54,459 nucleotides of DNA from an uncultured Erysipelotrichaceae bacterium. Its GTDB lineage: Bacteria > Bacillota_I > Bacilli_A > RFN20 > CAG-288. A program made the position numbers and the translations under genes. Under the pieces are notes generated by a model. It had not been told where the DNA came from and did not search any database. It was given only the letters and a program-made list of their open reading frames with translations. Numbering within the stretch: position 1 is the first letter of the stretch; each line of letters opens with the position of its first letter. The stretch lies in NCBI GenBank assembly GCA_902773085.1, contig CACYDF010000089.1, forward strand, positions 1-54,459. The letters run 5' to 3'. Positions 1-36,782 of this stretch are shown here, in pieces.

Positions 1-1
1 A

Positions 2-4201: not shown

Positions 4202-4267
4202 CTTTTTTTTGCTTTACAAACCAATAAAAATTTAATATAATTTTTCTTGCCTAAGAAAGGGGTATGT

Positions 4268-5664: not shown

Positions 5665-5940
5665 TGTTGATAAGTATATATTTATCAACTTTTATAAACA
5701 AATAAGCAACAAGAAATTGTTGTTTTTTTTCTTCTTTTTTCTCGATATTTTCGGCCTTTTTACACTTATCCACATTATTAACACTTCTTATTATCATCCT
5801 TTATAAATCTTTAAATATATACTAATTAAAAAGAAACACTTCTTTCTTTTTTACTCAGTTTCTTTTCTTTTTAAGTATATTTATATAATAAATATATTTA
5901 AAATCTTAAAAAGAGAATATAATATACTTGTTGTCTGTGG
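5665..5940. promoter_or_regulatory. oriC part 2: DnaA boxes plus AT-rich candidate unwinding region between dnaA and dnaN
   Basis: TGTTGATAA 5665-5673, TTATCAACT 5682-5690, perfect TTATCCACA 5766-5774 directly abutting TTATTAACA 5775-5783. These are followed by an almost pure A/T tract (about 5810-5930) before the dnaN SD. Confidence 0.65.
5707..5730 (+). terminator. Candidate intrinsic terminator after dnaA
   Basis: CAACAA (5707-5712), loop GAAA, TTGTTG (5717-5722), followed by T8 (5723-5730). Weak AT-rich stem. Confidence 0.45.
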
Positions 5941-11173: not shown

Positions 11174-12100
11174 ATGGATAGTATTTTAAGTTCAGAAAAT
11201 TTATCTTTTATTTATTACGAAGAAGAACAAGAAAAACAAACAAAACCAATATCAATTTCTTTTGCAAGTAATGATAGAGTTTTAATAATAAATGATATTA
11301 AAACAGCAGGAACTATTTCTGAATATCTTTTAGGTAATAAAAAAAGTAAAGTAAATTATAAAAATAAAGAACTTAATAAAATGTATCAAAAAGAAAAAGA
11401 AGATTTTTGTTTTAGAAAAGTTTCTGTGATTGAAAATAACATAAATAAACAAATTAGTAACGACCATCTTATTCTTCCTCAATTAATTAAGAATATAAAG
11501 AAAACTTCTGATTTAAAAAAGAATATATATCTAGACAAAGTTCTTCACTATAAAGAAAAAGTCAAAGATATAAAAAAGAACAAAGCAGAAATTATTCAAA
11601 ACATATGTAAAAAAGAAATATTAACAATAGAAGAAGGAACAAAAGAATACAAAAAGATATTAAACGAAAACAAAAACAAAGTAGTAATAAAAAAACTAGA
11701 AGCAAGAAATGATTACATAGTAAATAAAGCAAAATTAGAATTAGATTTAGAAAAAAAAGAAAATAAAAAACAAATATTAAAAACCAAATTAAAATCTTCA
11801 ACTAAACAAGCAAGAGGAGAAATAGAAGCAGTACTAAAACAAGCAGGTATTACTTCTACATCATTCTTATTAAAGGCTTATGATAAAACTAGCACAAGTG
11901 AAAATAAAATAATAAATCTTCTTTCTGCCTTTACTGGAAAAAAAGAAATTCTTATTATTTCTTCGAGTCTCTTTGATCAAGAAGAAATGAAATTAATAAA
12001 TAAATTATTAGAATATAAAAACTTGTTATTCATTTACATTACTTCTGATAAAGAAGTTGAAAAAGAATATTTTAATAAAGTAATAAAAATTCAAAAATAA
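11174..12100 (+). CDS. ABC-ATPase-like protein with degenerate catalytic motifs and a Lys-rich coiled-coil insert (probable pseudo-ATPase)
   Basis: N-terminus aligns to ABC NBDs (LSSENLSFIY...ISISFASNDRVLIINDIKTAGTISEYLLG), but the Walker A GxxGxGKS is replaced by NDIKTAGT. C-terminus aligns to signature / Walker B / H-loop (TSTSENKIINLLSAFTGKKEILIISSSLFDQEE...LLFIYITSDKE) with LSGGQ, DE and H all lost. Starts at TAAATG right after pepT. Confidence 0.6.
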   Translation: MDSILSSENLSFIYYEEEQEKQTKPISISFASNDRVLIINDIKTAGTISEYLLGNKKSKVNYKNKELNKMYQKEKEDFCFRKVSVIENNINKQISNDHLILPQLIKNIKKTSDLKKNIYLDKVLHYKEKVKDIKKNKAEIIQNICKKEILTIEEGTKEYKKILNENKNKVVIKKLEARNDYIVNKAKLELDLEKKENKKQILKTKLKSSTKQARGEIEAVLKQAGITSTSFLLKAYDKTSTSENKIINLLSAFTGKKEILIISSSLFDQEEMKLINKLLEYKNLLFIYITSDKEVEKEYFNKVIKIQK

Positions 12101-12101
12101 A

Positions 12102-12120
12102 AGACCTAATCTTTAGGTCT
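12102..12120. terminator. Hairpin between convergent genes (bidirectional terminator candidate)
   Basis: AGACCTAA (12102-12109) / TTAGGTCT (12113-12120), perfect 8-bp stem. Overlaps the last codons of the minus-strand gene. Confidence 0.5.
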
Positions 12121-13026
12121 AATATCAATAATCTCTGGTTCTATTTCTTCATTGCTATTATTCGAATTATTATTAAAGGGAGAAGAAGAATTTGGGCTTG
12201 CTTTTGCAAATCCGTTAAAAGTAGAATCAGTTCGAGCTTTATTATAAGAGAAAGAAGAATTGTTTTGATTTGTATTCCTTGATTGGAAAGACGAATAATT
12301 AAAACTACTTTGTGTATTATTTGGAGTAGATGAAAAAGAATGATTAGTATTAGATTGATATGAAGCAGTTTCTTTCTTAGATGAAGCAGCACTAGCAAAA
12401 AGCTTCTTAGAATTTTTAGAGTTTATAGCAGTTACAATAATACTAACAAAACCGATGAAGATTAGTAATATACCGATAATAATTCCAATCATTCTTTCCC
12501 CGCCAGTTAAACCTTCAAATTCATCAACTAAATTATCATTAATAAATAAGTAAGCACCACCAAGACCTGCACAAGCAGCAGCTCCTAAAAAAGAAAAGAA
12601 AACTAAAAGACTAGAACCTTTTCTTTTTTTTCTGGTTTTAATTAAATAGAAAATATGAACAAATAACAAAAACGCAAAAGCAAAAAGACAAACGATAGTA
12701 ATTACTGCAAAAAGAGAATATACTACGCTAGATTTTAAAATTAAGACAAAGGCTATAGCAATAAAGGCAACTCCTAAAATAACATTTTGAGAAAAAGGAG
12801 ATTTATATATTACATATCCACTAATTAACGTTAATAATCCATAAATAATAAAAGCAATTCCTAAAATTAAAGCAAGACCTCGAAAAACTTCTTCTGGATT
12901 ATCAAATAAAGACAAGTGATAAAAAGAAAAAATACCACCCACAGCAATTAATATTACATATTGAACATACTTTAGCCATGAAAAGGTTCGTATCTTGGAT
13001 ATATTAATGTCAGGTGCATTTGCCAT
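12106..13026 (-). CDS. Integral membrane protein, HdeD/DUF308-like repeats, with Ser/Asn-rich C-terminal tail
   Basis: Six or so hydrophobic helices with repeated G-rich loops (GGIFSFYHL..., LALILGIAFIIYGLLTLISGYVIY), then a low-complexity tail SSFNYSSFQSRNTNQNNSSFSYN. Family call is tentative. Confidence 0.55.
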   Translation of the reverse strand: MANAPDINISKIRTFSWLKYVQYVILIAVGGIFSFYHLSLFDNPEEVFRGLALILGIAFIIYGLLTLISGYVIYKSPFSQNVILGVAFIAIAFVLILKSSVVYSLFAVITIVCLFAFAFLLFVHIFYLIKTRKKRKGSSLLVFFSFLGAAACAGLGGAYLFINDNLVDEFEGLTGGERMIGIIIGILLIFIGFVSIIVTAINSKNSKKLFASAASSKKETASYQSNTNHSFSSTPNNTQSSFNYSSFQSRNTNQNNSSFSYNKARTDSTFNGFAKASPNSSSPFNNNSNNSNEEIEPEIIDIRPKD

Positions 13027-13117: not shown

Positions 13118-14764
13118 ATGGAAAGCGAAACACGACAACTTAAAGAAAAGAAACGTCTTCCTTGGTTCGTTAGATTTTTAAGAAACTTATTAATTGTCAT
13201 TATTATTTTAATAGGTGGAGTTTTTGCTGCTTTTTATGTTAATGACAAGACAGAAGTAGCTACTAACGATCAAACAAATGTACAAACAGTTTACTATTCA
13301 GCCTTATCAAAAAGTGTCGACGATATAGAAGAAACAAAGAAAATGAAATTTTCCCTTGAACAAATCTTTGTTAATTCAGTTATAAAAAAAGCAATTGATA
13401 GTGCAGGAGAAAAAGTAAAAAAATATATAACAGGGGCATATTTTGTTATAGAAGATAACAAATCATTTACAGCTGCAATTAAACTTAAAATAGCTTTTTT
13501 CTCGTCGCGTATTTCAATGAAGTGGGATTTTGAACAATATAATGGAGAAACAGAAGAAACAAGCGGATTCAAATTTAGATTAGCAGAAGTTAAAATTGGA
13601 AGAATTCCTGGATTTACTAATCTTATGCAAGCAATAGCTAGAGCTTTTAAAATAGAAACAATACTTGCGAACTTAGGATCTTCAATGGGACTATCAGCAG
13701 AAATAAATCTAGAAAGAAGAGAGATAACATATTCATATGCAAACTTTAAAAAAGATTTAAAAGGAATTATACAAAACACAAGAGAAGGGGAAGGATCAAC
13801 AAAATTAGAGATTTTTGAAGACTTCTTAGGAAGGATTATCTCTAAAGAAAATGTTGAAATGGCAATAGACAAAGAAAAAATTGAAGTAAATATAAGTTGT
13901 AATTCTTTATCTGCAGGAGATGTTGAAGAAAAAAGAATTCATTATGATTATAAAAAATTAAGAGAAATGATTAATATTCTACTTCCAAAAAATGAATCAT
14001 TAAAACAAAAAGATGTTTTACAATATTTAACTTATTATTATGTTCATGGCTATGACAACTCATCTTTAGCTACACAAGAAATGATGAAACAAATAGATTT
14101 TAGTGATTATACTGAAATATCTGACTATAAAACATATAATGGCATACTTCCATTTACCCAAGAATATAACCTTGAAGAAGAAATATATTATCAACTTTTC
14201 TCAGAAATACAAACAACCATTCAAAAAATTAATAATGGGGAACCAGTATTAGATTTAACAGACGCAAACTTTACAACAACAATGAGAGAAAATAGAACCA
14301 TCCTTGGTTATGCAAGTATTCTTGAAAGAGAAGAAGAAGGTAAAATAATATTCAACTTAATGAGTATTAAAGATTTCTATTGTGAAATAAATCAAAATGA
14401 AGTCGATTTTCACATTATTGTATCTTTAAATGGGCTTGATATGAATTTTGTATTAAAAACAAAAGTATCTACTAATATAGGAAATCATTTCCGTCTTTAT
14501 TTTGCTGTTGAACAACTTTTCTTAGGAGAAAACGAAGTAGACATTGATGCAATGAAAGAAATAATAAATGTTTTAGTTCAAAGTACTCAATATAAAAGTT
14601 TATTTGTTGTTACTCAAAACGGGAAACCTTTTATCTATTTAGATATAGATAACATTTTAAGTCGTCAAAATCCTCAAATACTAGATGCAATAAATGCTAA
14701 TAACAAAAGAGTAACTATTGAAGAAGGTTCTCAAAAAGACCATCTAGTATTATCATTTAAATAA
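13118..14764 (+). CDS. Hypothetical membrane-anchored protein (single N-terminal TM helix, large extracytoplasmic part)
   Basis: 548-aa ORF. N-terminal basic stretch then LLIVIIILIGGVFAAFYV helix. No recognisable catalytic motif. Confidence 0.8.
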   Translation: MESETRQLKEKKRLPWFVRFLRNLLIVIIILIGGVFAAFYVNDKTEVATNDQTNVQTVYYSALSKSVDDIEETKKMKFSLEQIFVNSVIKKAIDSAGEKVKKYITGAYFVIEDNKSFTAAIKLKIAFFSSRISMKWDFEQYNGETEETSGFKFRLAEVKIGRIPGFTNLMQAIARAFKIETILANLGSSMGLSAEINLERREITYSYANFKKDLKGIIQNTREGEGSTKLEIFEDFLGRIISKENVEMAIDKEKIEVNISCNSLSAGDVEEKRIHYDYKKLREMINILLPKNESLKQKDVLQYLTYYYVHGYDNSSLATQEMMKQIDFSDYTEISDYKTYNGILPFTQEYNLEEEIYYQLFSEIQTTIQKINNGEPVLDLTDANFTTTMRENRTILGYASILEREEEGKIIFNLMSIKDFYCEINQNEVDFHIIVSLNGLDMNFVLKTKVSTNIGNHFRLYFAVEQLFLGENEVDIDAMKEIINVLVQSTQYKSLFVVTQNGKPFIYLDIDNILSRQNPQILDAINANNKRVTIEEGSQKDHLVLSFK

Positions 14765-15134: not shown

Positions 15135-17105
15135 TTAGTTATTATTTCTTTCAATTATGATAGTTGAATCACTACTAGGTAAGATAGAATCTATTTTATA
15201 TCTTGTTCCAGTTTCTTCAATATAAAAAGAAAGATTATCAAGTGAAGTAATATTTAATGCATTACATAAACGAGAATAATTATCTTGAATAGTTGAACCA
15301 GGAATAATATAACAAGAAGAAGTATATTCGCCAGTAAAAGAAAGTAATATTCCTTTAGTAACTTTGTTATAGATATTAATTATAGGAGGTTCATCAAAAG
15401 AAGAAGAACCACTAATAGTTTCATTATTATTCTTTAACGAGAAAGAAGAGTCATAATAAAGGCCATCATATAAATAAGTATTATTGTTATATAATATATC
15501 ATCATATAAAGAAGGATACAAACTAGAAATAGACATATTTACTTCATTAGATTTGTAATGACCAAGAGATACATTACTAATAATATTTTTTTCATCAATT
15601 AAGGTTATTAAATTAATAATAGAAGTGTATTCTATTTTTAAATAAATAGATAGACTTCTACCAGGCATTAAAGTAGATGAAAAAAGAATTTCATTATTAT
15701 TTGATAAATAATAATAAGACTCTCCTTCAATTATTTTAGATAAGTAATCACTAGAAGAAGTTACTTTATCTTTAAACGAATTTAAATAAGAAGAAATATC
15801 ACTTCCTGAAGGAAGAAGTATTTCTTGATTTGAATAATAAGATTGATCATAAGAGTAATTATTAGGGAAAAAATAATTTATAAATAAAGAAGGGTAAGAA
15901 GTATATTGAGCAATAAGAGTTACATCATCATTGGGTAAAGCAAAAGAAAAAAGATTAATTTTTTCATTATTTACTAAGTAATGATTAAAGAATGTTGTTT
16001 CTTTTGTAGGATATTCATCTTTTATATATGATGGTAGAGAATCATATCCGTAACTTATAAAAGACAAAGAAGACTCTCCATTTAATGTTCCACCATTATA
16101 GTCAATTGTTACATTAATCTTTTTACCCCATAATAAATATAAAGAAATAGATTGTTCACCAATATCACTAGAGACAGGGAATTCTTCTTCGTAATCAGAA
16201 TCAAGGAAACAACCGATTAATTTATATTCTCTATCTCTAATATATATTTCTTTGTTTTCTCCGTATTCAATTTGACCAAGATTATTTTCAATAGTTTCAA
16301 TAATATTTGTGTAGATATTTTTGTTTTGAGCAAAAAAGGAAACTTGTAAATCATCTAATCCAAGATTAACAGTGACAGTAGAATTATCAACCCAGATAGC
16401 TTTTAATGTAATTGATTTTTTCTCTCCGCTTATTTGAGGAAAAGAAAAAGATTGGGCATTCTTATAAAAGTCTAAGAAATTATATTCGCCTTTTTCACTA
16501 TATTCATCAACCTTGTAAAAAACCTTTTTTGTATTTGGATCTGTTTGCTCAATAAGTTTATATTCAATTGCCCAATATGAAAAAGTTTTATTTAAACATG
16601 TTGCAGTAGGAAGATAGTTAGAAGAAGCAAATTCTTTTTTTTCATATCCATATAAAGTTAGATTCTCTGCATTAAAATCTCTATTTGGAGAAACAGGAGG
16701 AACTATCTTTGGTTCATATTCTTCACCGACATTTAAATCAAAAACAAAAGTTTCTTCTGGTTCAAAATAAGTATATAAAGTAGTAACACCATAAGGGTAT
16801 AGATATACTTCTTGACCAAAGAAAGGGGAAGAAGAATCAGTAATTAATCTTTTTTGTAAAAACTGATAAGAACCATTAATATATTCTCTCCATCCAACAA
16901 AATAATATCCTTCTTTTTTTGCTTGAGGAAGTCCACTAACAATGATAGTGTTACTTTCTCCTTTTATATAATTTGTAGAAAAAGAAGGATCAGCAAAAGC
17001 AGCACCTTCTTCTAAAACAAAAGTAATTGTTCCTGTTGGATTTAAGTTAGTACAAGATGATATAAACAATGAAAAAATAACAGGAAGGAATCTTTTCATC
17101 TTCAT
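15135..17105 (-). CDS. Lipoprotein with Listeria/Bacteroides-type (Flg_new-like) repeats
   Basis: Signal peptide with lipobox (FSLFISS-C). Repeated G(Y/F)xFxGW-type motifs (EGYYFVGWREY, TFSYWAIEY, YKLIGCFLD). Confidence 0.75.
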   Translation of the reverse strand: MKMKRFLPVIFSLFISSCTNLNPTGTITFVLEEGAAFADPSFSTNYIKGESNTIIVSGLPQAKKEGYYFVGWREYINGSYQFLQKRLITDSSSPFFGQEVYLYPYGVTTLYTYFEPEETFVFDLNVGEEYEPKIVPPVSPNRDFNAENLTLYGYEKKEFASSNYLPTATCLNKTFSYWAIEYKLIEQTDPNTKKVFYKVDEYSEKGEYNFLDFYKNAQSFSFPQISGEKKSITLKAIWVDNSTVTVNLGLDDLQVSFFAQNKNIYTNIIETIENNLGQIEYGENKEIYIRDREYKLIGCFLDSDYEEEFPVSSDIGEQSISLYLLWGKKINVTIDYNGGTLNGESSLSFISYGYDSLPSYIKDEYPTKETTFFNHYLVNNEKINLFSFALPNDDVTLIAQYTSYPSLFINYFFPNNYSYDQSYYSNQEILLPSGSDISSYLNSFKDKVTSSSDYLSKIIEGESYYYLSNNNEILFSSTLMPGRSLSIYLKIEYTSIINLITLIDEKNIISNVSLGHYKSNEVNMSISSLYPSLYDDILYNNNTYLYDGLYYDSSFSLKNNNETISGSSSFDEPPIINIYNKVTKGILLSFTGEYTSSCYIIPGSTIQDNYSRLCNALNITSLDNLSFYIEETGTRYKIDSILPSSDSTIIIERNNN

Positions 17106-19501: not shown

Positions 19502-20611
19502 ATGCTTTATACAAACAAGTTATTTAGAAAAAGAGACATCTATAATCACTTAAAATATGAAGCTCTGTTTTTTAAGGCAATTAAAGAAAACTGCTTATAC
19601 TTATATAAGCACTGTGCAGAGTATAAGAAGATTTTAGATGATAAATATTTTAATATTAATAGAGATTTAAAAAGCGTTGATGATATTAGTAAAATCCCTT
19701 TTATTCCTACTTTATATTTGAAAAGACATAAACTTACAACAATTAAACATAAATCTTTAATTACAGTAACTAGTAGTGGTACTTCAAGCAGAAATAAATC
19801 AGAAATAGATTTCAATTTAGGTTTCCTTCTTAGAGCTTGGAATATGACAAGAAGAGTAGCTAAGTATCATAAACTTTGGTCAATAAAGCCAACAAGATAT
19901 TTAATCCTTGGTTACAAACCAAATAAAAAGAATCCAGCAGCAGTAACAAAAACCGCTTTTGCTGCAACCTTCTTTGCACCAGGAATAAGTCGTACTTATG
20001 CTATTGATTATGTTAATGGTGAATATAAAGTTGATTTAGATAAATTAAAGAACAAGTTAGTTAAATTTGCAAAAGGTAGATTACCAGTAAGAACTATGGG
20101 CTTTCCAGCTTACACATATTTTTTGTTAAAGCAAATGAAGGACGAAGGAATCAAAGTTAAACTACCTAAGGGAAGCAAGATTATGCTTGGAGGTGGATGG
20201 AAACAGTTCTATGCAGAGAAAGTAGACAAAGAAGAATTTTATAAACTAGCTGAAGAAGTTTTAGGGGTTAATGATAAAAATATTGTTGAGTTTTTTGGAG
20301 CAGTCGAACATCCTATTTTATATACAGATTGTAGAGAACACCATTTTCATGTTCCTATCTATTCAAAAATAATTATTAGAGATGTATCTACTTTAGAACC
20401 ACTTGAAGAAGGCAAAATAGGTTTAATTAATTTAATTACTCCTATAGCATCATCTTCTCCATTAGTATCTATTATGACTGATGATTTAGGAGTTCTGCAT
20501 TCATCTTGTAAGTGTGGAGAAAAAGGTCAGTATCTAGAAATAATTGGGCGAGTAGGAATTAAAGATATTGTTACATGTGCTCAAGGGGCAGAGGAGATGT
20601 TAAAGCAATGA
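19502..20611 (+). CDS. LuxE-like acyl-protein synthetase / adenylate-forming enzyme
   Basis: N-terminal LFFKAIKENCLYLYKHCAEYKKIL...ISKIPFIPTLYLKRHKL and the TSSGTSS adenylation motif match my memory of the LuxE family (PF04443). Confidence 0.75.
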   Translation: MLYTNKLFRKRDIYNHLKYEALFFKAIKENCLYLYKHCAEYKKILDDKYFNINRDLKSVDDISKIPFIPTLYLKRHKLTTIKHKSLITVTSSGTSSRNKSEIDFNLGFLLRAWNMTRRVAKYHKLWSIKPTRYLILGYKPNKKNPAAVTKTAFAATFFAPGISRTYAIDYVNGEYKVDLDKLKNKLVKFAKGRLPVRTMGFPAYTYFLLKQMKDEGIKVKLPKGSKIMLGGGWKQFYAEKVDKEEFYKLAEEVLGVNDKNIVEFFGAVEHPILYTDCREHHFHVPIYSKIIIRDVSTLEPLEEGKIGLINLITPIASSSPLVSIMTDDLGVLHSSCKCGEKGQYLEIIGRVGIKDIVTCAQGAEEMLKQ

Positions 20612-21864
20612 TATTATTTCAAGGTCAAGTATATAAAGATAGTAAACAAGATGAACTCATATCTAAATTATATGAGACAGCTTTGCTTACTTTAAAAAAT
20701 AAACCTCTTGATCCTTTAACTGTTATTAATGCATGTGACAAGTTATATAAAAAGGTAATGAACCACGACTTTGATGATATTATTCTACCTTTACTTGAAA
20801 CATTTGATATTTCTTATCCTTACTTTTTAGATAGTGCAAAAAACTTTTCTAAAGAAGGACTACTGACTAAATTAAAAATAGAATTAGGTGAAGATTATGC
20901 ATCTTTATCAAAATTAAAAAGCGGAACTAAAAGGCAGTATTATCCACTTGGAATTCTTTTCCATGTTGCTGCAGGAAATGTTGATGCTCTTCCTGCATAT
21001 AGTGTAATAGAAGGATTACTTGCAGGTAATATTAATATTTTAAAGTTACCTAGTGGTGATTCAGGTATATCAATTAAGTTGTTAAGTGAATTAATTAAGG
21101 AAGAACCAATATTAAAAGATTACATTTATGTATTTGATGTTCCTTCTACTGAAATAGAAACCATAAAAAGACTTGCAAATATATCAAATGGAATTGTTGT
21201 ATGGGGAGGAGATTTTGCTTTAAAATCTGCAAGAGAATTTGCTCCAATTAATTCAAAGATTATTTGCTGGGGACATAAACTTTCTTTTGCATACGCTTCT
21301 TTAGATGCTAGTGAAAAAGAACTTGAAGAGCTTGCTTCTCATATATGTCAAACTAATCAAGTACTTTGTTCTTCTGTCCAAGGGATATTTGTAGATACTG
21401 AAAAAGAAGATGAGGCTAAGAAGTTTGCAGATAGATTCTTTAATATACTTGTTAAAGTTAGTAAATCTGGTGCTAAATACGATTTAGGAATGGCTGGTAA
21501 AAATACTATTAATTTATATGTAGATAAAATGGAAGATCCTTCTTTATATCTTTTAAATAGTGATGGAGTATCTGTTGTATACAAAAAAGATAGCAAACTG
21601 GAATTATCGTATATGTTTAGAAATGTGTGGATTAAACGATTACCAAGAGATAAAATTCTTACTTTACATAAAAACAAATCTTATTTACAAAGTGTTGCTT
21701 TATTGTGCACGGATAAAGATAGAGAAATTTTGTCAACTTTACTAGCTCAAGCAGGAGTTACAAGAGTTTCTGGCCCTAACTCATCTAGACTTTTCCTAGG
21801 AGAGTCACATGATGGTCTTTATCCACTTAGAGAATATTCAAGAGTAGTTGAATTTGATAAATAA
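20608..21864 (+). CDS. LuxC-like acyl-CoA (acyl-protein) reductase
   Basis: GILFHVAAGNVDALPAYSVIEGLLAGNINILKLPS is typical of LuxC/PF05893. Start set at ATG 20608 (ATGA overlap with the luxE-like stop, GGGGCAGAGGAG SD upstream), not the ORF-track start 20575. Confidence 0.75.
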   Translation: MILFQGQVYKDSKQDELISKLYETALLTLKNKPLDPLTVINACDKLYKKVMNHDFDDIILPLLETFDISYPYFLDSAKNFSKEGLLTKLKIELGEDYASLSKLKSGTKRQYYPLGILFHVAAGNVDALPAYSVIEGLLAGNINILKLPSGDSGISIKLLSELIKEEPILKDYIYVFDVPSTEIETIKRLANISNGIVVWGGDFALKSAREFAPINSKIICWGHKLSFAYASLDASEKELEELASHICQTNQVLCSSVQGIFVDTEKEDEAKKFADRFFNILVKVSKSGAKYDLGMAGKNTINLYVDKMEDPSLYLLNSDGVSVVYKKDSKLELSYMFRNVWIKRLPRDKILTLHKNKSYLQSVALLCTDKDREILSTLLAQAGVTRVSGPNSSRLFLGESHDGLYPLREYSRVVEFDK

Positions 21865-22003
21865 AGAAACAGGAATATGTGGTTAAAAAAATCTGGAATA
21901 TAATGAAGAAGAAAAATAAATCAATGCAAAAAACTGTTTATACTATTTGTTTTTAATATTAGTATGGAAAAATCAAATTTATTTGTGAAAAAAAAGTAAA
22001 AAT

Positions 22004-22026
22004 CCCCTGGAACACGAGAAGAAAAA
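22004..22026. repeat. Palindromic element copy a (3' arm conserved, 5' arm diverged)
   Basis: CCCCTGGAACAC-GAGAAGAAAAA. Confidence 0.5.
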
Positions 22027-22205
22027 CTAATTTAAACAATAATAGTACAAAGAGAAAATATAAATAAAGTATATTTAATTTAATTAATAAACACTCTCAG
22101 CACCTAAAGTAAAACAAAAGAGACACGAAGAAGTAAAACAATTTACGCAAAACGACAATTTTATAAATATAATTGATCGAATATAAAAAATAGTAATAAT
22201 ACCAA

Positions 22206-22235
22206 TTTCTTCTCGTATAAGAGAATAAAAACACG
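22206..22235. repeat. Palindromic element copy b
   Basis: TTTCTTCTC-GTATAA-GAGAATAAAAACACG. TTCTC/GAGAA stem. Confidence 0.7.
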
Positions 22236-22326
22236 TTTTTAAATAGTTAAGTTACTTATAAATACACTATATAATTATATAAATAACAAATTAAAAATCG
22301 TCTTATTAAAATGGCAAAAAAACAAA

Positions 22327-22354
22327 TTTTCTCCTCTTATATGAGAAGAAAACG
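22327..22354. repeat. Palindromic element copy c
   Basis: TTTTCTCCTC-TTATAT-GAGAAGAAAACG. One mismatch in the stem. Confidence 0.8.
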
Positions 22355-22640
22355 CTTGTTTTGTAATAACAATAGCATGCTTATGATTGATGAGAGCGGG
22401 AAGATATTAAAGATCTACAGTCAAATTAAAAACACAAACACATACATGTAATTAAATTTTGCAAACATATCATTGTAATTTCTTTAACAAAGAATAGGTC
22501 ATAAAATTTAAAGTTAAAGTAATAATCATATTATATCAGGAAAAATCATTTTACTAATCTGAAAAAAACATATTAACTTTTTTTCATTGGATAGAGTACT
22601 AAGAAAAAAATTTAACAAAAAACAACCTTGTTAAAATATA

Positions 22641-22680
22641 AAGTTGCTAATTTGATTTTACTCTCAAACAAGAAGGAGAA
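22641..22680 (+). repeat. Direct repeat k, copy 1
   Basis: AAGTTGCTAATTTGATTTTACTCTCAAACAAGAAGGAG shares an identical 15-mer TCTCAAACAAGAAGG (22662-22676) and flanks with copy 2. Confidence 0.7.
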
Positions 22681-22842
22681 ATCAATTTTTGATAATAGTT
22701 GTTTAACAATTTATTCACTTAATAAAACACGGAATTTCAAAAGATATGACAAGTGTTAATTTTTTTAATAATATGGATAATTGTAATATGATAACACCTT
22801 CTGATATATGTGATATTTTAATATAAACAATTAACTATAAAT

Positions 22843-22872
22843 CGTTTTTTCTTCTCTTATACGGGAACAAAA
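22843..22872. repeat. Palindromic element copy d (3' arm degenerate)
   Basis: CGTTTTTTCTTCTC-TTATAC-GGGAACAAAA. Confidence 0.65.
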
Positions 22873-23132
22873 TTACTTTTTCATGCTGTTATATTAAGGA
22901 TGCAGAAGATTCTTAAATTTATACTTACTGCATTTAATAAATAAAGGAACAACAAAAAAGAAATATTATTACTATTGATTAATAAGTTTATTTTTTACTA
23001 TATCCATTTTCTTTTTTTGCTTTCAACTTACCTTTTATATATTTGATCTGTTTTATAGTGAACTAAAATTGATATATTACATCTTATAAAGAACAGGACA
23101 AAATTAAACAAAAGCAACTTTGTGATATTTTT

Positions 23133-23170
23133 AAATTGTTAATAAAGATTTGTTCTCAAACAAGAAGGTG
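23133..23170 (+). repeat. Direct repeat k, copy 2
   Basis: AAATTGTTAATAAAGATTTGTTCTCAAACAAGAAGGTG. 15-mer at 23154-23168. Confidence 0.7.
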
Positions 23171-23222
23171 TTTTCTTCTTTTTTTAAAAAGCACTATATC
23201 CTTCAGAGTTTTCATTTGCTTG

Positions 23223-23245
23223 TTTTTTCTCTTGAATGAGAATTA
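23223..23245. repeat. Palindromic element copy i (short form)
   Basis: TTTTTTCTC-TTGAAT-GAGAATTATT. Confidence 0.5.
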
Positions 23246-23348
23246 TTAAAATTTGATAATATTCATCATAATATAATATCTTGGAATTATACTTGAATCA
23301 AACCTACTTATTGTTAATTTCTTTTGTATCAAATAATTCCATAAAAAC

Positions 23349-23377
23349 CGCGTTTCTTCTCTTATATGAGAAGAAAA
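23349..23377. repeat. Palindromic element copy e (best preserved)
   Basis: CGCG-TTTCTTCTC (23353-23361) TTATAT GAGAAGAAA (23368-23376). Perfect 9-bp stem. Confidence 0.85.
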
Positions 23378-23462
23378 TGGTCATTTATAATTAATTTTTT
23401 TACATGAATTATTATTAGCAATATTATCAATATAACTAAAATGAATTTTAATCTATACTCTA

Positions 23463-23494
23463 TTTTTTCTCCCAATTATTTGTAGCTTTGTTTT
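23463..23494 (+). repeat. Direct repeat j, copy 1
   Basis: TTTTTTCTCCCAATTATTTGTAGCTTTGTTTT. Core CAATTATTTGTA at 23473-23484. Confidence 0.7.
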
Positions 23495-23605
23495 ATTAAC
23501 GATTATTTAATAGATCTAAATTTTAGTACAGAATCATAGTCAAAGTATAATAAAAGAAAGAATTATATTGAATGTTTAAAACAATAATGTAAAGCTTTAT
23601 TAAAA

Positions 23606-23630
23606 TTTTTCTTCTCGTACGCGAGAGGAT
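23606..23630. repeat. Palindromic element copy f (compensated stem, UACG loop)
   Basis: TTTTT-CTTCTCG-TACG-CGAGAGG. 7-bp stem including one G-T pair. The loop reads UACG in RNA. Confidence 0.75.
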
Positions 23631-23646
23631 TTTTCTTCTCTTATAC
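23631..23646. repeat. Palindromic element half copy f2 (5' arm plus loop only), abutting copy f
   Basis: TTTTCTTCTC-TTATAC, followed by unrelated T-rich sequence. Confidence 0.5.
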
Positions 23647-23715
23647 TTTTATTTATTATTGTTTCCTTTTTTTGTTTTACAATTTATTTTCTTATTTTTA
23701 TTTCTACTTTTTATC

Positions 23716-23744
23716 TTTTTCTTCTCTTATGAGAAGGGGAAAAG
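23716..23744. repeat. Palindromic element copy g
   Basis: TTTTT-CTTCTC-TTAT-GAGAAG-GGGAAAAG. Confidence 0.8.
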
Positions 23745-23764
23745 CAAAAAGTAGTTTAGTTTTA

Positions 23765-23796
23765 TTTTTCTTCAATTATTTGTAAATTGGCGTTTT
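23765..23796 (+). repeat. Direct repeat j, copy 2 (runs into palindromic copy h)
   Basis: TTTTTCTTCAATTATTTGTAAATTGGCGTTTT. Core CAATTATTTGTA at 23773-23784, exactly 300 bp from copy 1. Confidence 0.7.
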
Positions 23797-23820
23797 GCTT
23801 CTGGTACTTGAGAAGAAAAG
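23791..23820. repeat. Palindromic element copy h
   Basis: CGTTTTG-CTTCT-GGTACTTG-AGAAG-AAAAG. Confidence 0.65.
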
Positions 23821-23908
23821 TGGTTTTCGTTGCTTATAAATTTAATCTCTAAATAAATATATAGTTCATCTCTTTTTTAAATATAAAATAAATTTATTTA
23901 TTTTAGAT

Positions 23909-23914
23909 TATAAT
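23909..23914 (+). promoter_or_regulatory. Candidate -10 box for leuS
   Basis: TATAAT lies 19 nt upstream of the leuS ATG and just before the GGGAG SD. No convincing -35. Confidence 0.3.
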
Positions 23915-23932
23915 ATATTTCGGGAGAAAAAC

Positions 23933-26338
23933 ATGTTTGACCACAAAAAAGTAGAAATTAAATGGGAAAAAAGATGGGAGAAAGAAAAAGTATATAAAAC
24001 AGATACTTCTGACTTTTCAAAACCTAAATATTATATCTTGGATATGTTTCCATACCCAAGTGCTGTCGGACTTCATGTAGGACATGTTGAAGGTTATACT
24101 GCAACTGATGCCTTAAGTAGAATGAAAAGGATGCAAGGATATAATGTGCTTCATCCTATTGGATACGACGCTTTTGGTCTTCCTGCAGAGCAGTTTGCGA
24201 TTAAAAATAACAAAAATCCAAAGATTTATACCGATCAAAATATCGAAAATTTTCAAAAGCAGCTAAAAAGACTTGGATTTTCGTATGATTGGGATAGAGT
24301 AGTAAAAACAAGCGATCCAAAGTATTATAAGTGGACTCAAACTATTTTTAATATGCTTTATGACCAAGGACTAGCATATGAAGATTATAGAGCAGTAAAT
24401 TATTGCCCAAAATTAGGTACAGTTCTTGCAAATGAGGAAGTAATTGACGGAAAAAGCGAAAGAGGAGGCTATCCAGTAGAAAAAAGGCTCATGAAACAAT
24501 GGGTTTTAAAGATTACGGCCTATGCAGAAGAACTTCTAGAAGGACTTAGTACTATAGAATGGCCACAATCTACTATTGCAATGCAAAAAAACTGGATTGG
24601 TAAGTCAAAAGGCGTAGTTATTACCTTTAAAGTCAAAGATAATGATACAAAGTTTGATGTATATACAACAAGAGTAGATACCTTATATGGATGTACATAT
24701 GTTGTACTAGCTCCTGAACATGAACTAGTTAAAAAACTAGTATCAAAAGAACAGAAAAAAGAAGTAGAACAATATATCAAAGAAACAAACAAAAAATCAG
24801 ACATAGAAAGAAATGATACATCTAAAGAAAAAACAGGAGTATTTTTAGGATGTTATGCTATCAATCCAATTAATGGAGAAGAGGTCCCAATTTACATTGG
24901 AGACTATGTATTATCTAGTTATGGATGTGGAGCAGTAATGGCTGTTCCAGCACACGATCAAAGAGACTATGAATTTGCAAAAAAACATAATCTAAAAATT
25001 AAACAAGTTTTGGAAGGAGATATCTCTAAGCATGCATTTGAAGATGATGGTGTTCACATTAATTCCGAAGAAGCTAATGGATTAAATATAGCAGATGCAA
25101 AATCGAAGATTACTGAGAAATTAATTAGTTTAAAAGCAGGAAGATATCAAACAAATTATAAGTTAAGAGATTGGCTATTTTCTCGACAAAGATATTGGGG
25201 AGAACCAATACCTATTATTCATTTAGAAGATGGGACAATTGCAGTAGAGAGAAAGCTTCCTTTAATATTACCAGAACTTGAAGATTATAAGCCTTCAAAA
25301 GATGGCAAAGCACCTTTATCAAAAGCAAGTAAATGGTTAGAAGTAAAAGTAGGATCAAAAAAAGGAACTAGAGAGATTAATACAATGCCACAATGGGCAG
25401 GGTCAAGTTGGTATTATGCTAGATACATTGATCCTAAAAATGATAAAGAAATTGGAGATAAGAAGTTGCTTGATCATTGGCTACCAGTTGATGTTTACAT
25501 AGGTGGTGCAGAACATGCTGTACTTCACTTGTTGTACGCAAGATTCTGGCACAAATTTTTACATAACCAAGGTATATTTAAATCAAGTGAACCATTTAAA
25601 AAACTTTATCATCAAGGACTAATATTAGGAACTGATGGGCAGAAGATGTCAAAGTCTGCAGGTAATGCAGTTTCACCAGATGAAATTATAGAAGAATTTG
25701 GAGCAGATGCTTTACGACTTTATGAGATGTTTAAAGGGCCAGTTGATCAGTCTCTTCCTTGGTCTATACAAGGGCCAAAAGCTGCAAAGAAGTTTATTGA
25801 TAGATTCTATAGATTATTTATAGATAGCCAATTTAAACAAATAACAACCGACAAGAACAACGACAAGTTGGATTATGTATACAACTATACAATTAAGAAA
25901 TGCACTCAAGATTATGAGATGCTACATTTCAATACAGGTGTATCTCAAATTATGATTTTTGTTAATGCATTATATGAAGCAAATTCTATTCCAAAAAAGA
26001 TGCTCGTTGATTTAGCAAAATTAATTGCACCAATCTGCCCTCATCTTGGTCAGGAATGTTATTCTTTAATATGTGATAACAATGAATTGATTGACTATAC
26101 TTCTTGGCCAAAATACAAGGAAGAAAAAATTAGTGCTAAACCAATCACATATGCAGTTCAAGTTAACGGAAAACTTCGTGGTACTATTGAATATAAGTTT
26201 GATGCTAATGATAAAGAACTTGAAGAGTTAAAAGAGAAAGCAGTTAAATTAGAAAGTGTAAAAACTTATTTAGAGAATAAAGAAATAATAAAAATAATTG
26301 TTGTAAAAAATAAGATAATTTCTATTGTAGTTAAGTAG
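23933..26338 (+). CDS. leuS: Leucine--tRNA ligase
   Basis: HIGH-type motif (GLHVGHVEGY), KMSKS (QKMSKSAGN), and CP1 editing-domain length. 801 aa. Confidence 0.96.
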   Translation: MFDHKKVEIKWEKRWEKEKVYKTDTSDFSKPKYYILDMFPYPSAVGLHVGHVEGYTATDALSRMKRMQGYNVLHPIGYDAFGLPAEQFAIKNNKNPKIYTDQNIENFQKQLKRLGFSYDWDRVVKTSDPKYYKWTQTIFNMLYDQGLAYEDYRAVNYCPKLGTVLANEEVIDGKSERGGYPVEKRLMKQWVLKITAYAEELLEGLSTIEWPQSTIAMQKNWIGKSKGVVITFKVKDNDTKFDVYTTRVDTLYGCTYVVLAPEHELVKKLVSKEQKKEVEQYIKETNKKSDIERNDTSKEKTGVFLGCYAINPINGEEVPIYIGDYVLSSYGCGAVMAVPAHDQRDYEFAKKHNLKIKQVLEGDISKHAFEDDGVHINSEEANGLNIADAKSKITEKLISLKAGRYQTNYKLRDWLFSRQRYWGEPIPIIHLEDGTIAVERKLPLILPELEDYKPSKDGKAPLSKASKWLEVKVGSKKGTREINTMPQWAGSSWYYARYIDPKNDKEIGDKKLLDHWLPVDVYIGGAEHAVLHLLYARFWHKFLHNQGIFKSSEPFKKLYHQGLILGTDGQKMSKSAGNAVSPDEIIEEFGADALRLYEMFKGPVDQSLPWSIQGPKAAKKFIDRFYRLFIDSQFKQITTDKNNDKLDYVYNYTIKKCTQDYEMLHFNTGVSQIMIFVNALYEANSIPKKMLVDLAKLIAPICPHLGQECYSLICDNNELIDYTSWPKYKEEKISAKPITYAVQVNGKLRGTIEYKFDANDKELEELKEKAVKLESVKTYLENKEIIKIIVVKNKIISIVVK

Positions 26339-33127: not shown

Positions 33128-34123
33128 ATGTCTATGGAAAAAGAAAACACAGAAATCTCTCTAATTTATCAAAGCAAAAGTGAGTGGATAAGATCATTAT
33201 TGTTTGGAATTGTCTTAGGCCTTTTTGTTATTATTCCAGGTGTTTCAGGAGCAACGCTTTTAATAAGTTTAGGAGTTTATTATAAAGTAGTTTATGCAGT
33301 TTCAAATATTCTAAAAAAAGGAAAGAAAAAAATGTGTTTTACTTTTCTTCTTCCACTTGTGTTAGGTATATTAATAGGTTTACTAAGTGGTTTATTTTTA
33401 ATTAGATTTTTATTAGATATAGTCCCTTTCTCAACAATCTTTTTATTTGCAGGACTAATGATAGGATCATCCCCTGTTCTATTTAAAGAAATTAAAGGGA
33501 AAGAAAAAAGACCATCTAATATTCTTTTAATGCTTATAGGAACTATTTTTATTTTATTTATTTGTCTCTTGTCTATTTATTTATCAAGAGAAGAATTATT
33601 TTATGGTCAAGAAAAAAGTGTAAGAACTTTAGTTGATGTAGAAACATATTTTTACTTTGTAAGTATCTTAATTGGTTTTGTAATAGGAATTACGCAGGTT
33701 ATTCCAGGATTGTCAGCATCTGCATTTTTAATGATGATAGGATATTATTCAATTATTTTAAATTCTATTCATTTTTCAATCATTATAGAATCACCAATGA
33801 TTATTCTAATATTTGTATTATTAATTGTTGGATTCCTCTTAGGTGTATTAATAACCAACAAAATTATGCTAGTTTCAATGAAAAAGAATAAAGAAAAGAT
33901 GGATTTTTTTATTTCAGGTCTTGCAATTGGTTCAATAATAGCTATTTTTGTTTCTAAAGAACTATTTGAAAAGGTTTATTTGGTTTATTTTTCATCAAAA
34001 ATGTCAACTATACAACTAGTTGACTTTATAATTGGCTTTTTAACTTTTGGTATAGGAATAACTATATCTTTATTAATATCCAGGAAAGCAACAACAAAAG
34101 AAGAAATAAAAGAAATTAACTAA
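33128..34123 (+). CDS. DUF368-family membrane protein (family implicated in undecaprenyl-phosphate recycling)
   Basis: Internal duplication, each half carrying the PG(V/L)S(G/A) motif (VIIPGVSGATLL; VIPGLSASAFLM). Polytopic. Confidence 0.72.
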   Translation: MSMEKENTEISLIYQSKSEWIRSLLFGIVLGLFVIIPGVSGATLLISLGVYYKVVYAVSNILKKGKKKMCFTFLLPLVLGILIGLLSGLFLIRFLLDIVPFSTIFLFAGLMIGSSPVLFKEIKGKEKRPSNILLMLIGTIFILFICLLSIYLSREELFYGQEKSVRTLVDVETYFYFVSILIGFVIGITQVIPGLSASAFLMMIGYYSIILNSIHFSIIIESPMIILIFVLLIVGFLLGVLITNKIMLVSMKKNKEKMDFFISGLAIGSIIAIFVSKELFEKVYLVYFSSKMSTIQLVDFIIGFLTFGIGITISLLISRKATTKEEIKEIN

Positions 34124-36782
34124 TATTAATTTGATAAGAACACTTGGAGCCGTTATTAAATAATGCTTTGTTTCCAAAGCCAGCTGGAACAAGTAAAGAA
34201 TTAAATATAGTTGTTTCTTCAGCATCTAAGGCGGTATTACTATTACGCTTTTTAATAATACTCCATTGTTTGCTTGTGTAATATTGGGTTGGGCCATTGT
34301 ATTCAAGCCAATAATATAAATTGTTTAATTCTTCAGGAGACAAATCTTTAACTAGTGAAGAAAGGAAACCAAAGCAAGATAAGGAATTTCTTTTTTCATT
34401 TTCTTTCATTCTGGAAGGATATTCCATTACAGTTGTAGGGGTTGTATAACTTCCTATTTCAAAGCTAGATCCACTTTTGAAAAGAACAGAATTGCAGTCA
34501 GATGTAGTGGACTTTAGGTAATAAGAAGAATCAACATATTCTTCATTGTCGACAGTAAGGATTCTAATTTCATCACAGTAATTAGCAAATTTTTCGCCAC
34601 CTACTATATTTGCAATTGCACCATTTCGATTTTTAGAACCATGTTCAGCAAACTCGCCATACTCAGTATTAGTAATAGGACAAGCAAGAAGTTCATTTTC
34701 ACCTAGAGAAATGAGGTGAACAGGATCTGAAGGAACTACATATTCGTTATTAGAATATACTAAACCTCTTTTATCAACGTGATAAATTCTTACACCAGTA
34801 TTTGTAAAATTTTGAGTAGAATAAACATCATATCCTTTGGTATTAAGATTATCATTGATACTACTTGAATAAGGGTAATTAGATTCAGGTGTGAAAAAGT
34901 CAATAACAAGATATTCATCATAAGGAATGAATTTTGTTTCACCACGACTATTCTTATAATATGAACTTGAATAATCAAGAGAATCATAAGGTATAACAAC
35001 AACTTGGTTTTTGTATAAAGAGGGTTTTAACGTAATTGTAGATTTTCCGTATACTAAATATGGTTTTGTCCAACCTAGAAGAAGTTTACTATATGGATTA
35101 TGATCGAGGAAGTTTTTATCCATGAAATCAAGACCGCCAAGAGGGGCGTAATTTGCGACGTGTGAATTACCTTTAGTTTGAAAAACATAAGGAGCATCAC
35201 TGCTTGCTGTTACTGAATAGTAGTCGCTAAGTCCAAGTAAGTGACCTGTTTCGTGAATAATAGAATGTGCATCTCCAGTAGAGTTTTGACCAGTTGTTCC
35301 TGCACTAGTAGTTTTTTGTGCTTTATAGAAATCATCATTTAAAGTGCCGATAGGAGTCCATGCAAACATATTAACAACTGGTTCAGATACATTAGGAGTT
35401 GTATTTAAAAGGTTATTAGTATGTGGCCAGCCAGCATGTGAATTATTGGCTAAAGGACTGATAGGATTAAATGATACAAACCATAGCGCATCAATATAAC
35501 CATCTCCATTAGAATCAAAGTCTCTTAAATCAAAACCAGACTTCTTAACATAGCTGACAGCATCTTTAAGCATAGGGGCTAAATCATTATCAGTAAGAAC
35601 TGGTAAGCCATCACTACCAAAATTAATTTTATACGATTTTGATCCATCAATTTGAGGATTAAATGGAGGCGCAACTTGTCCGTAAAAATTTAACAAGCCA
35701 TAACTGCTCTTATAGTAGAAAGATCTAAGAGACTCATAATATAAATCATCAGAGTTTCCAAAGAAGCACTTCTCTATTATTGATAAATTTTCATCAGTGA
35801 ATAACTCGTGGCTTTTGCTGTTATTAAAGTAAAAAGGAATTACTAAAACAGGAACATCACCAATAGAGGGACACACTATTTTTTCCTCGTCGTTTTTTGT
35901 TCTAAAATAATCAAAACCAAAAGAGTTATCTACTTGACTTGGACTGATATAATTTTCTGTGCCTGTTTGTCTAGATTGATCAATCTCATTATTTGTAATA
36001 GTTAAAGTAATTGTTTCGTCAGTATCATATTTAACTATTGTTGATTCATCAAAATCTTCTAAAGATAAAGAAGAGGAAACAGCCGAATCTGTTACGTTTA
36101 TTTTATATGTAGCTGGTGCAGTTTGCTTTCCAGAAAACAAAAAAGAAGGCGCAGTAACTGAAATTGTATAAACCCCTTTGGTCCCTTCTGGAAACATATA
36201 GCCTTTTGTTAAAGGGATGTTTCTATTGTTGTTACGATAAGAAAAAGAACAAGCACTTAGAGGAACATCATAAATCTTTTTTAATTGTTGACCATTAAGT
36301 GTTTCATAAGTTAATAATCTTTTTGCAACTAAACCTTCTCCACTAAATGTACTAGAAGGAGAATTTGCATAATAATATTGATGAATAGGATAAGAAGAGA
36401 TATAGAAGCTTTCACTCATAGCTTCATATATCGTGATTTCTATACTATAGTTTTTATATCCTTCAGAAGAAAAAACCCATCTATATTTTCCTGGTGTTAT
36501 TGAAAGGATGTCACCTTGTCGGATATCCTGTTTAGCATTTGCCCATCTAATTGTGTAGTTAACTTCCTTTTTGTCGCCTGTTTCATAATCGACACCTTTA
36601 ACTATACAATCACTTAAATCGACAGTTTCATTAACAAAATATTCTCTTTTTGTTAAATCTACTTCAAGATAATTATCAGTTGTAATAGTTGCAGCTTCTG
36701 ACAAGCCAAAAATTGTACAACTAGGAATTAGAAGTGAAAGAGAAAAAGATAAAAAAGCAAAAAGACGTTTTTGTTTTCCCAT
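34116..36782 (-). CDS. Large lipoprotein with M6 (immune inhibitor A)-like zinc metalloprotease motif
   Basis: Signal peptide plus lipobox (LLIPS-C). HETGHLLGLSDYY fits HExxHxxGxxD. 8-nt 3' overlap with the convergent DUF368 gene. Confidence 0.72.
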   Translation of the reverse strand: MGKQKRLFAFLSFSLSLLIPSCTIFGLSEAATITTDNYLEVDLTKREYFVNETVDLSDCIVKGVDYETGDKKEVNYTIRWANAKQDIRQGDILSITPGKYRWVFSSEGYKNYSIEITIYEAMSESFYISSYPIHQYYYANSPSSTFSGEGLVAKRLLTYETLNGQQLKKIYDVPLSACSFSYRNNNRNIPLTKGYMFPEGTKGVYTISVTAPSFLFSGKQTAPATYKINVTDSAVSSSLSLEDFDESTIVKYDTDETITLTITNNEIDQSRQTGTENYISPSQVDNSFGFDYFRTKNDEEKIVCPSIGDVPVLVIPFYFNNSKSHELFTDENLSIIEKCFFGNSDDLYYESLRSFYYKSSYGLLNFYGQVAPPFNPQIDGSKSYKINFGSDGLPVLTDNDLAPMLKDAVSYVKKSGFDLRDFDSNGDGYIDALWFVSFNPISPLANNSHAGWPHTNNLLNTTPNVSEPVVNMFAWTPIGTLNDDFYKAQKTTSAGTTGQNSTGDAHSIIHETGHLLGLSDYYSVTASSDAPYVFQTKGNSHVANYAPLGGLDFMDKNFLDHNPYSKLLLGWTKPYLVYGKSTITLKPSLYKNQVVVIPYDSLDYSSSYYKNSRGETKFIPYDEYLVIDFFTPESNYPYSSSINDNLNTKGYDVYSTQNFTNTGVRIYHVDKRGLVYSNNEYVVPSDPVHLISLGENELLACPITNTEYGEFAEHGSKNRNGAIANIVGGEKFANYCDEIRILTVDNEEYVDSSYYLKSTTSDCNSVLFKSGSSFEIGSYTTPTTVMEYPSRMKENEKRNSLSCFGFLSSLVKDLSPEELNNLYYWLEYNGPTQYYTSKQWSIIKKRNSNTALDAEETTIFNSLLVPAGFGNKALFNNGSKCSYQINIS

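Follow-up and report, generated by a model that had tools for sequence, protein, structure and literature searches.

What maintains a family of short palindromes within a single stretch of DNA that holds no genes? The question is raised by the 54,459-nt contig CACYDF010000089.1 of an uncultured Erysipelotrichaceae bacterium (assembly GCA_902773085.1), analysed here over its whole length (hereafter the window), in which the gap between a luxC-like gene and leuS carries about twelve copies of one palindrome. A gene-free spacer of 1.4–2 kb is unusual because the reduced RF39-type Bacilli of gut and rumen have little non-coding DNA. Here we report that the palindrome family is real, statistically solid and bound to this locus within the sequence examined, and that its members are probably functional sites, which are kept while the intervening DNA changes.

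In each site, which is about 26 nt long, a pyrimidine arm (TTTCTTCTC) and a purine arm (G-R-G-R-R-N-A-A-A) enclose a 6-nt loop with TATA at its centre. A previous inspection of the letters (the sequence-only reading) had listed ten copies with their loops, all of which were verified in the sequence. Two decayed copies (j1 and j2, with the common sequence CTCAAACAAGAAGG) are additional to that list. Six copies are well preserved (b, c, d, e, f, g) and about six are decayed (a, h, i, f2, j1, j2). Scores in bits are those of a covariance model (R1) that was built from ten copies and run across the whole window with filters off; L numbers denote contigs of other strains, and n1–n6 are the copies in a second allele of the spacer. 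The spacer and its copies are as follows:

21865–23932 (2,068 bp), no strand: AT-rich spacer without genes, between the luxC-like gene and leuS; 22% GC
22004–22026, minus strand: copy a, decayed; perfect TTTCTTCTC arm with partner GGGGA; 15.5 bits in the window, 23.2 bits in L121/L122
22205–22230, plus strand: copy b, TTTCTTCTC gtataa GAGAATAAA; 38.8 bits
22327–22352, minus strand: copy c, TTTCTTCTC atataa GAGGAGAAA, with the better arm on the minus strand; 40.4 bits there, 33.3 bits on the plus strand
22652–22686, minus strand: copy j1, decayed; 16.2 bits; 17/18 identical to the reverse of n5
22847–22872, plus strand: copy d, TTTCTTCTC ttatac GGGAACAAA; 38.7 bits; aligned with n1
about 23149–23172, no strand: copy j2, decayed; shares CTCAAACAAGAAGG with j1; read from the sequence
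23223–23248, plus strand: copy i, decayed, TTTTTTCTC ttgaat GAGAATTAT; 14.4 bits in the window, 23.6 bits in L128/L129; collinear with n2
23352–23377, no strand: copy e, perfect 9-bp dyad TTTCTTCTC ttatat GAGAAGAAA; 39.9 bits
23607–23630, plus strand: copy f, TTTCTTCTCG tacg CGAGAGGA; 32.4 bits; terminator-like
23631–23646, plus strand: copy f2, left arm and loop only; 17/17 identical to copy d
23717–23742, plus strand: copy g, TTTCTTCTC ttat GAGAAGGGG, with a 4-nt loop; 26 bits, untrained
23794–23819, no strand: copy h, decayed, right arm better kept; 10.4 bits; aligned with n6

The family stands out clearly from the base composition of the window. Exact matches to TTTCTTCTC number 16, against 1.99 expected and a largest shuffle of 5, and ten of them lie inside the gap. 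The pattern CTTCTC-N2-10-GAGAAG was found twice (0.02 expected), and the relaxed dyad TTCTC-N6-GRGRR gave nine matches at six sites, all within the gap (0.7 expected). At E < 0.01, R1 recovered only b, c, d, e and f, which belong to its training set, and g, which does not (26 bits, E = 2e-4); copies a, h and i are weak (10–16 bits). The best R1 match beyond the gap (17.5 bits, E = 0.06) is not a family member. No copies were found outside the gap, either in the 54-kb window or in the flanks of about 12 kb in other strains, and within this range the confinement that the sequence-only reading had claimed holds. The copies are mixed in orientation and irregularly spaced (24–520 bp); most score higher on the plus strand, with c and a (minus) as exceptions. 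The loop measures 6 bp in 10 of the 11 scored copies, its centre is the self-complementary TATA, and its first bases are conserved as N-T-R-T.

Twelve contigs of the same species, four of sister species, and one (L123) from a somewhat more distant luxC relative were traced via the window proteins and their close homologues. The closest contigs stem from ENA metagenome assemblies and from public sequencing runs assembled by Logan; among the more distant luxC relatives, many are metagenome-assembled genomes of rumen or faecal origin. The window-type allele is present in L125, L128, L129 and L137 at 95–100% identity. The gap is not an assembly artefact because L128, an independent contig, spans it entirely (98% identity). 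The second allele (L130, L131, L132, L136 and L138) is 1.43 kb long and has a minus-strand lipoprotein gene on its left. This lipoprotein-like gene (L130, positions 1–243, minus strand) has a signal peptide ending LNAC, stands in place of luxC and has no counterpart in the 54-kb window. Ten of the 12 species contigs end at the spacer, seven inside the gap (L121, L122, L125, L129, L132, L137, L138) and three in the adjacent lipoprotein gene (L130, L131, L136), which could be due to strain heterogeneity, poor coverage of AT-rich hairpin DNA, or structural variation.

Between the two alleles, leuS is 97.4% identical at the nucleotide level and 93.8% identical at third codon positions. The only blastn match between the spacers at the threshold used comprises the last 57 bp, and the proximal 220 bp are 72% identical; since these 220 bp align, the alleles are orthologous and have diverged far beyond synonymous sites. 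For this pair (window 21865–23872 and L130 244–1613), the difference is 28% in the proximal 220 bp, beyond which the spacers cannot be aligned, compared with 6% at the third positions of leuS; for the window and L128, the corresponding values are 1.9% and 0.4%. Old alleles maintained through recombination, or hypermutability at the locus, could explain the excess divergence of the spacer. The sister species (LeuS 88–89% and LuxC 86% identical) have neither a luxC–leuS gap nor the palindrome family in the contigs examined; their gene orders are adh_short, 112 bp, leuS and luxC, 216 bp, bmp operon. Since the gap is absent there and only the last ~55 bp upstream of leuS are shared, the spacer lies at a synteny break and is species-specific.

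The second allele holds the same palindrome five times (n1–n5), together with a decayed copy (n6). Global alignment pairs d, e, f, g and h with n1, n3, n4, n5 and n6, and copy i adjoins n2, so that six palindromes occur in the same order, at spacings of 376, 129, 255, 110 and 77 bp in the window and of 286, 149, 293, 159 and 83 bp in the second allele. The order of the sites is thus kept; their helical phasing is not. Element columns are 71% identical between the alleles, compared with 45% in the rest of the gap (p = 8e-10), and, leaving aside the leuS promoter block, the best local matches are mostly the palindrome itself. With training on the window copies alone, a model recovered the five strong copies of the second allele without any further match in 14 kb. 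Copies n1–n5 all score higher on the plus strand and have kept the TTTCTTCTC 9-mer to 100%. Individual pairs are also close: copy e is 23/26 identical to n3, copy g is orthologous to n5 within the 72%-identical proximal block, copy a and n2 have TTTTCTTCTCGTGT in common, and a, h and n6 form a subtype (YTGGWAC..GAGAAKAAAA). The left part of the gap tells the same story in contig L121, where it is 85% identical to the window (LuxC 99%): none of the 92 alignment columns that differ from L121, and none of the 33 that differ from L122, falls within copies a, b or c, and copy b is identical in L121 despite the 15% divergence of its surroundings. Enrichment and conservation between alleles together bear out the earlier view of a family of dyad-symmetric elements under constraint, and the six collinear palindromes in the two spacers argue against chance.

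Beyond this species, the motif is absent from 80 luxC loci of other genomes, and a scan of JGI metagenomes with a 24-nt degenerate pattern returned only three unrelated singletons. A scan of a viral collection gave 39 loci on 38 contigs, in unrelated context throughout and nearly all with a single match. A 198-kb viral contig of 45% GC (IMGVR_UViG_3300010219_000057) contains three exact TTTCTTCTC-N4-5-GAGAAGAAA dyads (L102 470–491; L117 5379–5401 and 5859–5881); these are probably a repeat of that phage's own, and their context is unlike that of the window. Literature searches for RF39 palindromes and for the 9-mer yielded nothing useful.

The two arms of the palindrome are unequally constrained. 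Among the scored copies the left, pyrimidine arm has changed at 1 of 99 positions and is intact in 10 of 11, whereas the right, purine arm has changed at 16 of 99 (p = 1.5e-4). Where the right arm has A, 12 changes were counted; 10 of them are A to G and thus retain U·G pairs (p ~ 0.008). In the alignment of ten copies, 89% of the cells pair, eight of them as U·G. RNA folding gave z-scores from −3.4 to −5.2 for the well-folding copies, about half of the total (copy c, −16.2 kcal/mol, z −5.2; copy e, −14.8 kcal/mol, z −4.8); the hairpin of copy d is weak (−4.3 kcal/mol, z −1.3). Held-out copies scored 6–12 bits higher with a structured model than with a sequence-only model, two models that are not strictly comparable, and this difference is not counted as evidence of pairing.

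A terminator scan of the window gap made four calls (0.2 expected), namely c (minus strand), e (minus strand), f (plus strand), and an alternative hairpin in which the right arm of f pairs with the left arm of f2 (calls at 23610–23629 and 23623–23640). In the second allele, four of five calls fall on the palindromes n2, n3 and n4, the last of these on both strands (again 0.2 expected). Because of these calls, the earlier statement that the elements are not intrinsic terminators in either direction was too strong. Copies b, d, g, h and n5, for their part, do not combine a stable stem with a directly following U-tract, and several copies have no T-run. The other terminators in the window have unrelated, GC-richer stems.

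A non-mobile family at a single locus that, like this one, has kept its positions through deep allelic divergence points to cis-acting sites. We tentatively favour the reading that these are fixed single-strand hairpin sites, read via the 5' arm and the loop, because a single-stranded hairpin best fits the unequal constraint on the arms. Several observations weigh against this. Compensatory covariation, which the sequence-only reading had suggested, is absent from the ten-copy alignment, where the left arm is invariant in all ten copies and the single two-sided cell does not exceed shuffles; copy f, which had been read as a change of both arms, is a stem extended by loop bases plus one A-to-G wobble and is not compensatory. 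In 4 of 10 copies the C9–G26 pair is disrupted. Folding is weak in half of the copies (z above −1.5 for b, d, h, a, n1 and n5), which still retain the 9-mer, so that sequence is conserved more than pairing. Extended outer stems are no better than those of shuffled flanks (z −1.45), and their appearance is explained by flanks that are A-rich and T-rich. The A-to-G events are not all independent because the copies are related by duplication. Finally, 6 of the 39 differences from the closest strains (98% identical) lie inside elements, which is no depletion, and some of them break pairs; the constraint is therefore visible only at deeper divergence.

Several of these observations would be expected if the palindromes were duplex DNA sites for a sequence-specific binding protein, that is, TTTCTTCTC half-sites, mostly in 9-6-9 dyads around TATA, that nucleate a complex such as a silencer or insulator, a regulator, or a centromere-like site near oriC. 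The 9-mer is invariant even where its partner arm pairs poorly, f2 would be a solo half-site, the 6-bp spacing is fixed in 10 of 11 scored copies around a self-complementary centre, covariation is absent, and the order of sites is kept between the alleles while their helical phasing is not. The location also fits. The window includes dnaA (4247–5662), dnaN (5950–7101) and two clusters of canonical DnaA boxes, upstream (3970–4201) and downstream (5665–5774) of dnaA, and therefore contains oriC; the gap lies about 16 kb to the right of these clusters. The difference between the arms (1/99 and 16/99) is, however, unexpected for a symmetric dimer, copy g scores strongly with a 4-bp spacer, the motif is absent from the other promoters in the window, the array has no DNA-binding gene beside it, and the window yielded no regulator. 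We rate a duplex protein-binding array as almost as likely as the hairpin reading and itself doubtful. It is less probable that the copies are non-functional relics of a palindrome-bearing unit of about 500 bp that was duplicated locally, with persistence due to gene conversion or to chance retention of low-complexity pyrimidine and purine runs. The gap does show direct self-similarity at an offset of ~495 bp (81 bits; shuffle maximum 52), copies c, d and e are spaced by 520 and 505 bp, the distance between j1 and j2 (494 bp) matches the same register, several copies are decayed, and polymorphisms among the closest strains strike the elements at background rate. The faint period suggests that the family may have originated by tandem duplication of a larger unit; the segments between the palindromes are about 58% similar to one another, and whole-gap inverted symmetry shows no excess over shuffles. 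Evidence for descent from an ancestral palindrome of ~30 nt, as proposed earlier, is weak: the outer CGTTTT/AAAACG occurs only in the window-type allele and is absent from n1–n5. Relics would hardly be expected to keep the 9-mer to 100% in the five strong copies of the second allele while the flanks are saturated, or to leave a, b and c free of differences from L121 and L122.

Mobility would be another source of such repeats. Short imperfect palindromes outside genes, clustered, in both orientations and with one arm better kept, resemble selfish hairpin repeats of the REP/BIME or MITE/PATE type that are moved by a Y1 enzyme (RAYT or IS200/IS605) encoded elsewhere, as the sequence-only reading had considered. 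This explanation is now disfavoured, and we regard it as rather unlikely: neither the other intergenic regions of the 54-kb window nor the flanks in other strains contain a copy, the positions are collinear in two diverged alleles, a GTAG-type 5' motif is absent, no transposase was found in the window, the family is missing from the sister species and from the 80 related luxC loci, and the JGI metagenomes gave the three singletons only. With a single locus and collinear positions, the copies behave as fixed sites and not as mobile insertions. Site-specific recombination would account for the 10-6-10 layout (arm, 6-bp crossover, arm) with an asymmetric centre and both orientations; the spacer would then be invertible or shuffling, perhaps in connection with the lipoprotein gene beside the second allele, and contigs would tend to end there, as 7 of 12 do inside the gap and 3 more just beside it. 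Yet the alleles share no inverted or reordered segments, only palindromes; L121, L128 and L129 are collinear with the window; the centre sequences vary among copies; there is no recombinase gene in the window; and the sites neither resemble dif nor lie near the terminus, being close to oriC. We consider recombinase core sites very improbable.

Under the favoured hairpin reading, the family would be a fixed cis-acting set at one locus that arose by local duplication and was retained by selection, and its members would act as single-stranded stem-loops. The acting strand may be a plus-strand RNA made in the spacer or, equally, the plus strand of the DNA, which serves as lagging-strand template, oriC being on the left. 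A putative factor would recognise the sequence of the 5' arm and of the first bases in the loop, with the 3' arm needing only to pair, and the subset of hairpins with downstream T-runs would stop or stabilise transcripts. The leuS promoter might thereby be insulated from luxC read-through and from spurious starts in AT-rich DNA. The data show that the family exists, that it keeps to this locus and to the same positions in both alleles, and that its arms differ in constraint; we infer the single-strand action, the choice of RNA as the strand, the trans-acting factor and the insulating role. More speculatively, and with little confidence, the six collinear hairpins might be modules of a cis-acting system not previously described: either a long non-coding RNA (1.4–2 kb) in which protein-binding stem-loops are the only constrained parts (a scaffold or sponge), or an origin-proximal array of single-stranded or duplex DNA that a lineage-specific factor uses to organise or segregate the chromosome of this reduced genome. 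The window showed no par genes.

One 9-mer and its pairing partner, kept at six ordered positions amid a diverged spacer, represent a clean natural footprint of a cis-acting site. If a reader were identified, a lineage without genetics would gain a regulatory or chromosome-organising element; if there is none, the locus illustrates how local palindrome families arise and persist without transposition.

The immediate flanks of the spacer contain the following features:

20608–21864, plus strand: luxC-like acyl-CoA reductase, left flank; Pfam PF05893; homologues of 418 aa
23873–23932, plus strand: leuS promoter-proximal block with TATAAT (23909–23914) and a GGGAG ribosome-binding site; outside the repeat family
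23933–26338, plus strand: leuS, right flank; Pfam leucyl-tRNA synthetase domains

The gene pair to the left of the spacer is luxE/luxC-like. The mechanically called luxC open reading frame (ORF; 20575) begins 11 codons early; homologues of ~418 aa place the start at 20608, with a 4-nt overlap with the luxE stop. The leuS promoter-proximal block is 87–98% conserved in both alleles and in the sister species. The flanking proteins have their best named relatives among Mollicutes-like or RF39-type Bacilli, e.g., 'Ca. Enterosoma' for LeuS (70% identity); the organism itself is an RF39-like member of the Bacillus class. The window has a low G + C content (26–33%), with a GC fraction of 0.22 in the spacer and of 0.28–0.33 in the flanks. 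The spacer contains no tRNA, and its longest ORF encodes 46 aa. Along the spacer (window 21850–23950) the A/T skew of the plus strand changes sign near 22750, from A-rich in the left part (+0.33) to T-rich in the right part (−0.23); the second allele has no skew of this kind.

Elsewhere in the window, the dnaA ORF as listed starts with TTG. At 158–364, a 58-aa ORF has a good ribosome-binding site (AAAGGAGA), is followed by a strong terminator (342–364), and includes a chance exact match to the 13-mer TTTCTTCTCTTAT. Eight sizeable ORFs (306–946 aa) have no Pfam match (including 7103–9943, 11174–13026, 13118–14764, 15135–17105, 34116–36782, 47718–49082 and 52982–54229); the 946-aa ORF lies in a region of extreme purine excess (AT skew 0.57 and GC skew 0.35 at 8–9 kb). 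The tsaD gene (50463–51947) is apparently fused to an N-terminal GNAT (RimI-like) acetyltransferase domain and is followed by tsaB-like and tsaE genes.

No coding or acquired origin of the spacer was found. The 46-aa ORF (22311–22451) is frameshifted and stopped in L121, with mostly non-synonymous changes, and the spacers of the two alleles have no ORF of at least 25 aa in common. Eroded genes were rejected since tblastn found no match in the gap for the proteins that flank luxC and leuS in the sister species or for the L130 lipoprotein fragment, and a plasmid or phage origin since there was no blastn match. Control of leuS in Firmicutes is usually by a T-box leader, but Rfam gave no matches of any family in 21700–24100, even at E up to 10. 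The left arm can be read as Leu codons (TTT CTT CTC TTA, F-L-L-L); a leader-peptide attenuator was nevertheless rejected because a start codon or ribosome-binding site is missing from most copies (an in-frame start is lacking in 10 of the 17 combinations of copy and strand, and ribosome-binding sites were not observed).

The palindromes also do not show the full defining features of REP/BIME, CRISPR, attC, dif, MITE, T-box, leader-peptide attenuator or DnaA-box cluster. Integron attC sites have RYYYAAC / GTTRRRY, unlike the arms TTTCTTCTC / GAGAAGAAA; there are no ORFs between the sites and no integrase in the window. The arms are likewise unlike dif, and the locus is ~16 kb from the DnaA-box clusters, not at the terminus. 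A MITE is contradicted by inter-palindrome segments that are only ~58% similar and by the absence of dispersed copies, and a DnaA-box cluster by the gap having just two one-mismatch matches to TTATCCACA, the boxes being clustered at the origin positions given above. For a symmetric dimer operator, the fixed spacing and the TATA centre do fit, but the arm changes do not. CRISPR arrays resemble the locus in having partly palindromic conserved repeats with intervening DNA that is entirely different between strains. They differ from it with respect to spacing (24–520 bp here), the mixed orientation, the collinearity between alleles and the lack of cas genes in the window, and the earlier exclusion of a CRISPR array on account of the irregular spacing stands.

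The nearest analogies are REP/BIME clusters, CIRCE and centromere-like repeat arrays. REP/BIME elements of enterobacteria and pseudomonads are palindromes of 20–40 nt, dispersed in hundreds, with a 5' GTAG and a RAYT gene. Like them, the present family comprises imperfect extragenic palindromes in clusters of mixed orientation, which may form hairpins in RNA or single-stranded DNA and may end or stabilise transcripts. Unlike them, all copies lie in one spacer at conserved positions, and dispersed copies were not found in the 54 kb; there is no GTAG-like 5' tetranucleotide beside the palindromes, whose flanking columns are not conserved, and no RAYT or Y1 transposase gene among the window ORFs. 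CIRCE, the HrcA operator (TTAGCACTC-N9-GAGTGCTAA), is reported to act both as a DNA operator and as an mRNA stem-loop and occurs once or twice before groE and dnaK operons. It is likewise a 9-bp inverted repeat ending CTC / GAG with a fixed spacer, but its sequence is unlike that of the palindromes, its spacer is 9 instead of 6, and about twelve copies are found here in a gene-free spacer. Centromere repeats (F sopC, and parS clusters near oriC) are regularly spaced or exact 16-mers, usually with adjacent par genes. They, too, are several copies of a short, non-coding, cis-acting palindrome that is specific to a replicon or species and, on chromosomes, lies near the origin; the sites described here are asymmetric and have no par genes in the window. 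Among known things, the family is thus placed with the short intergenic palindromic repeats, where it is unusual in its confinement to one hypervariable spacer and in the conservation of its positions.

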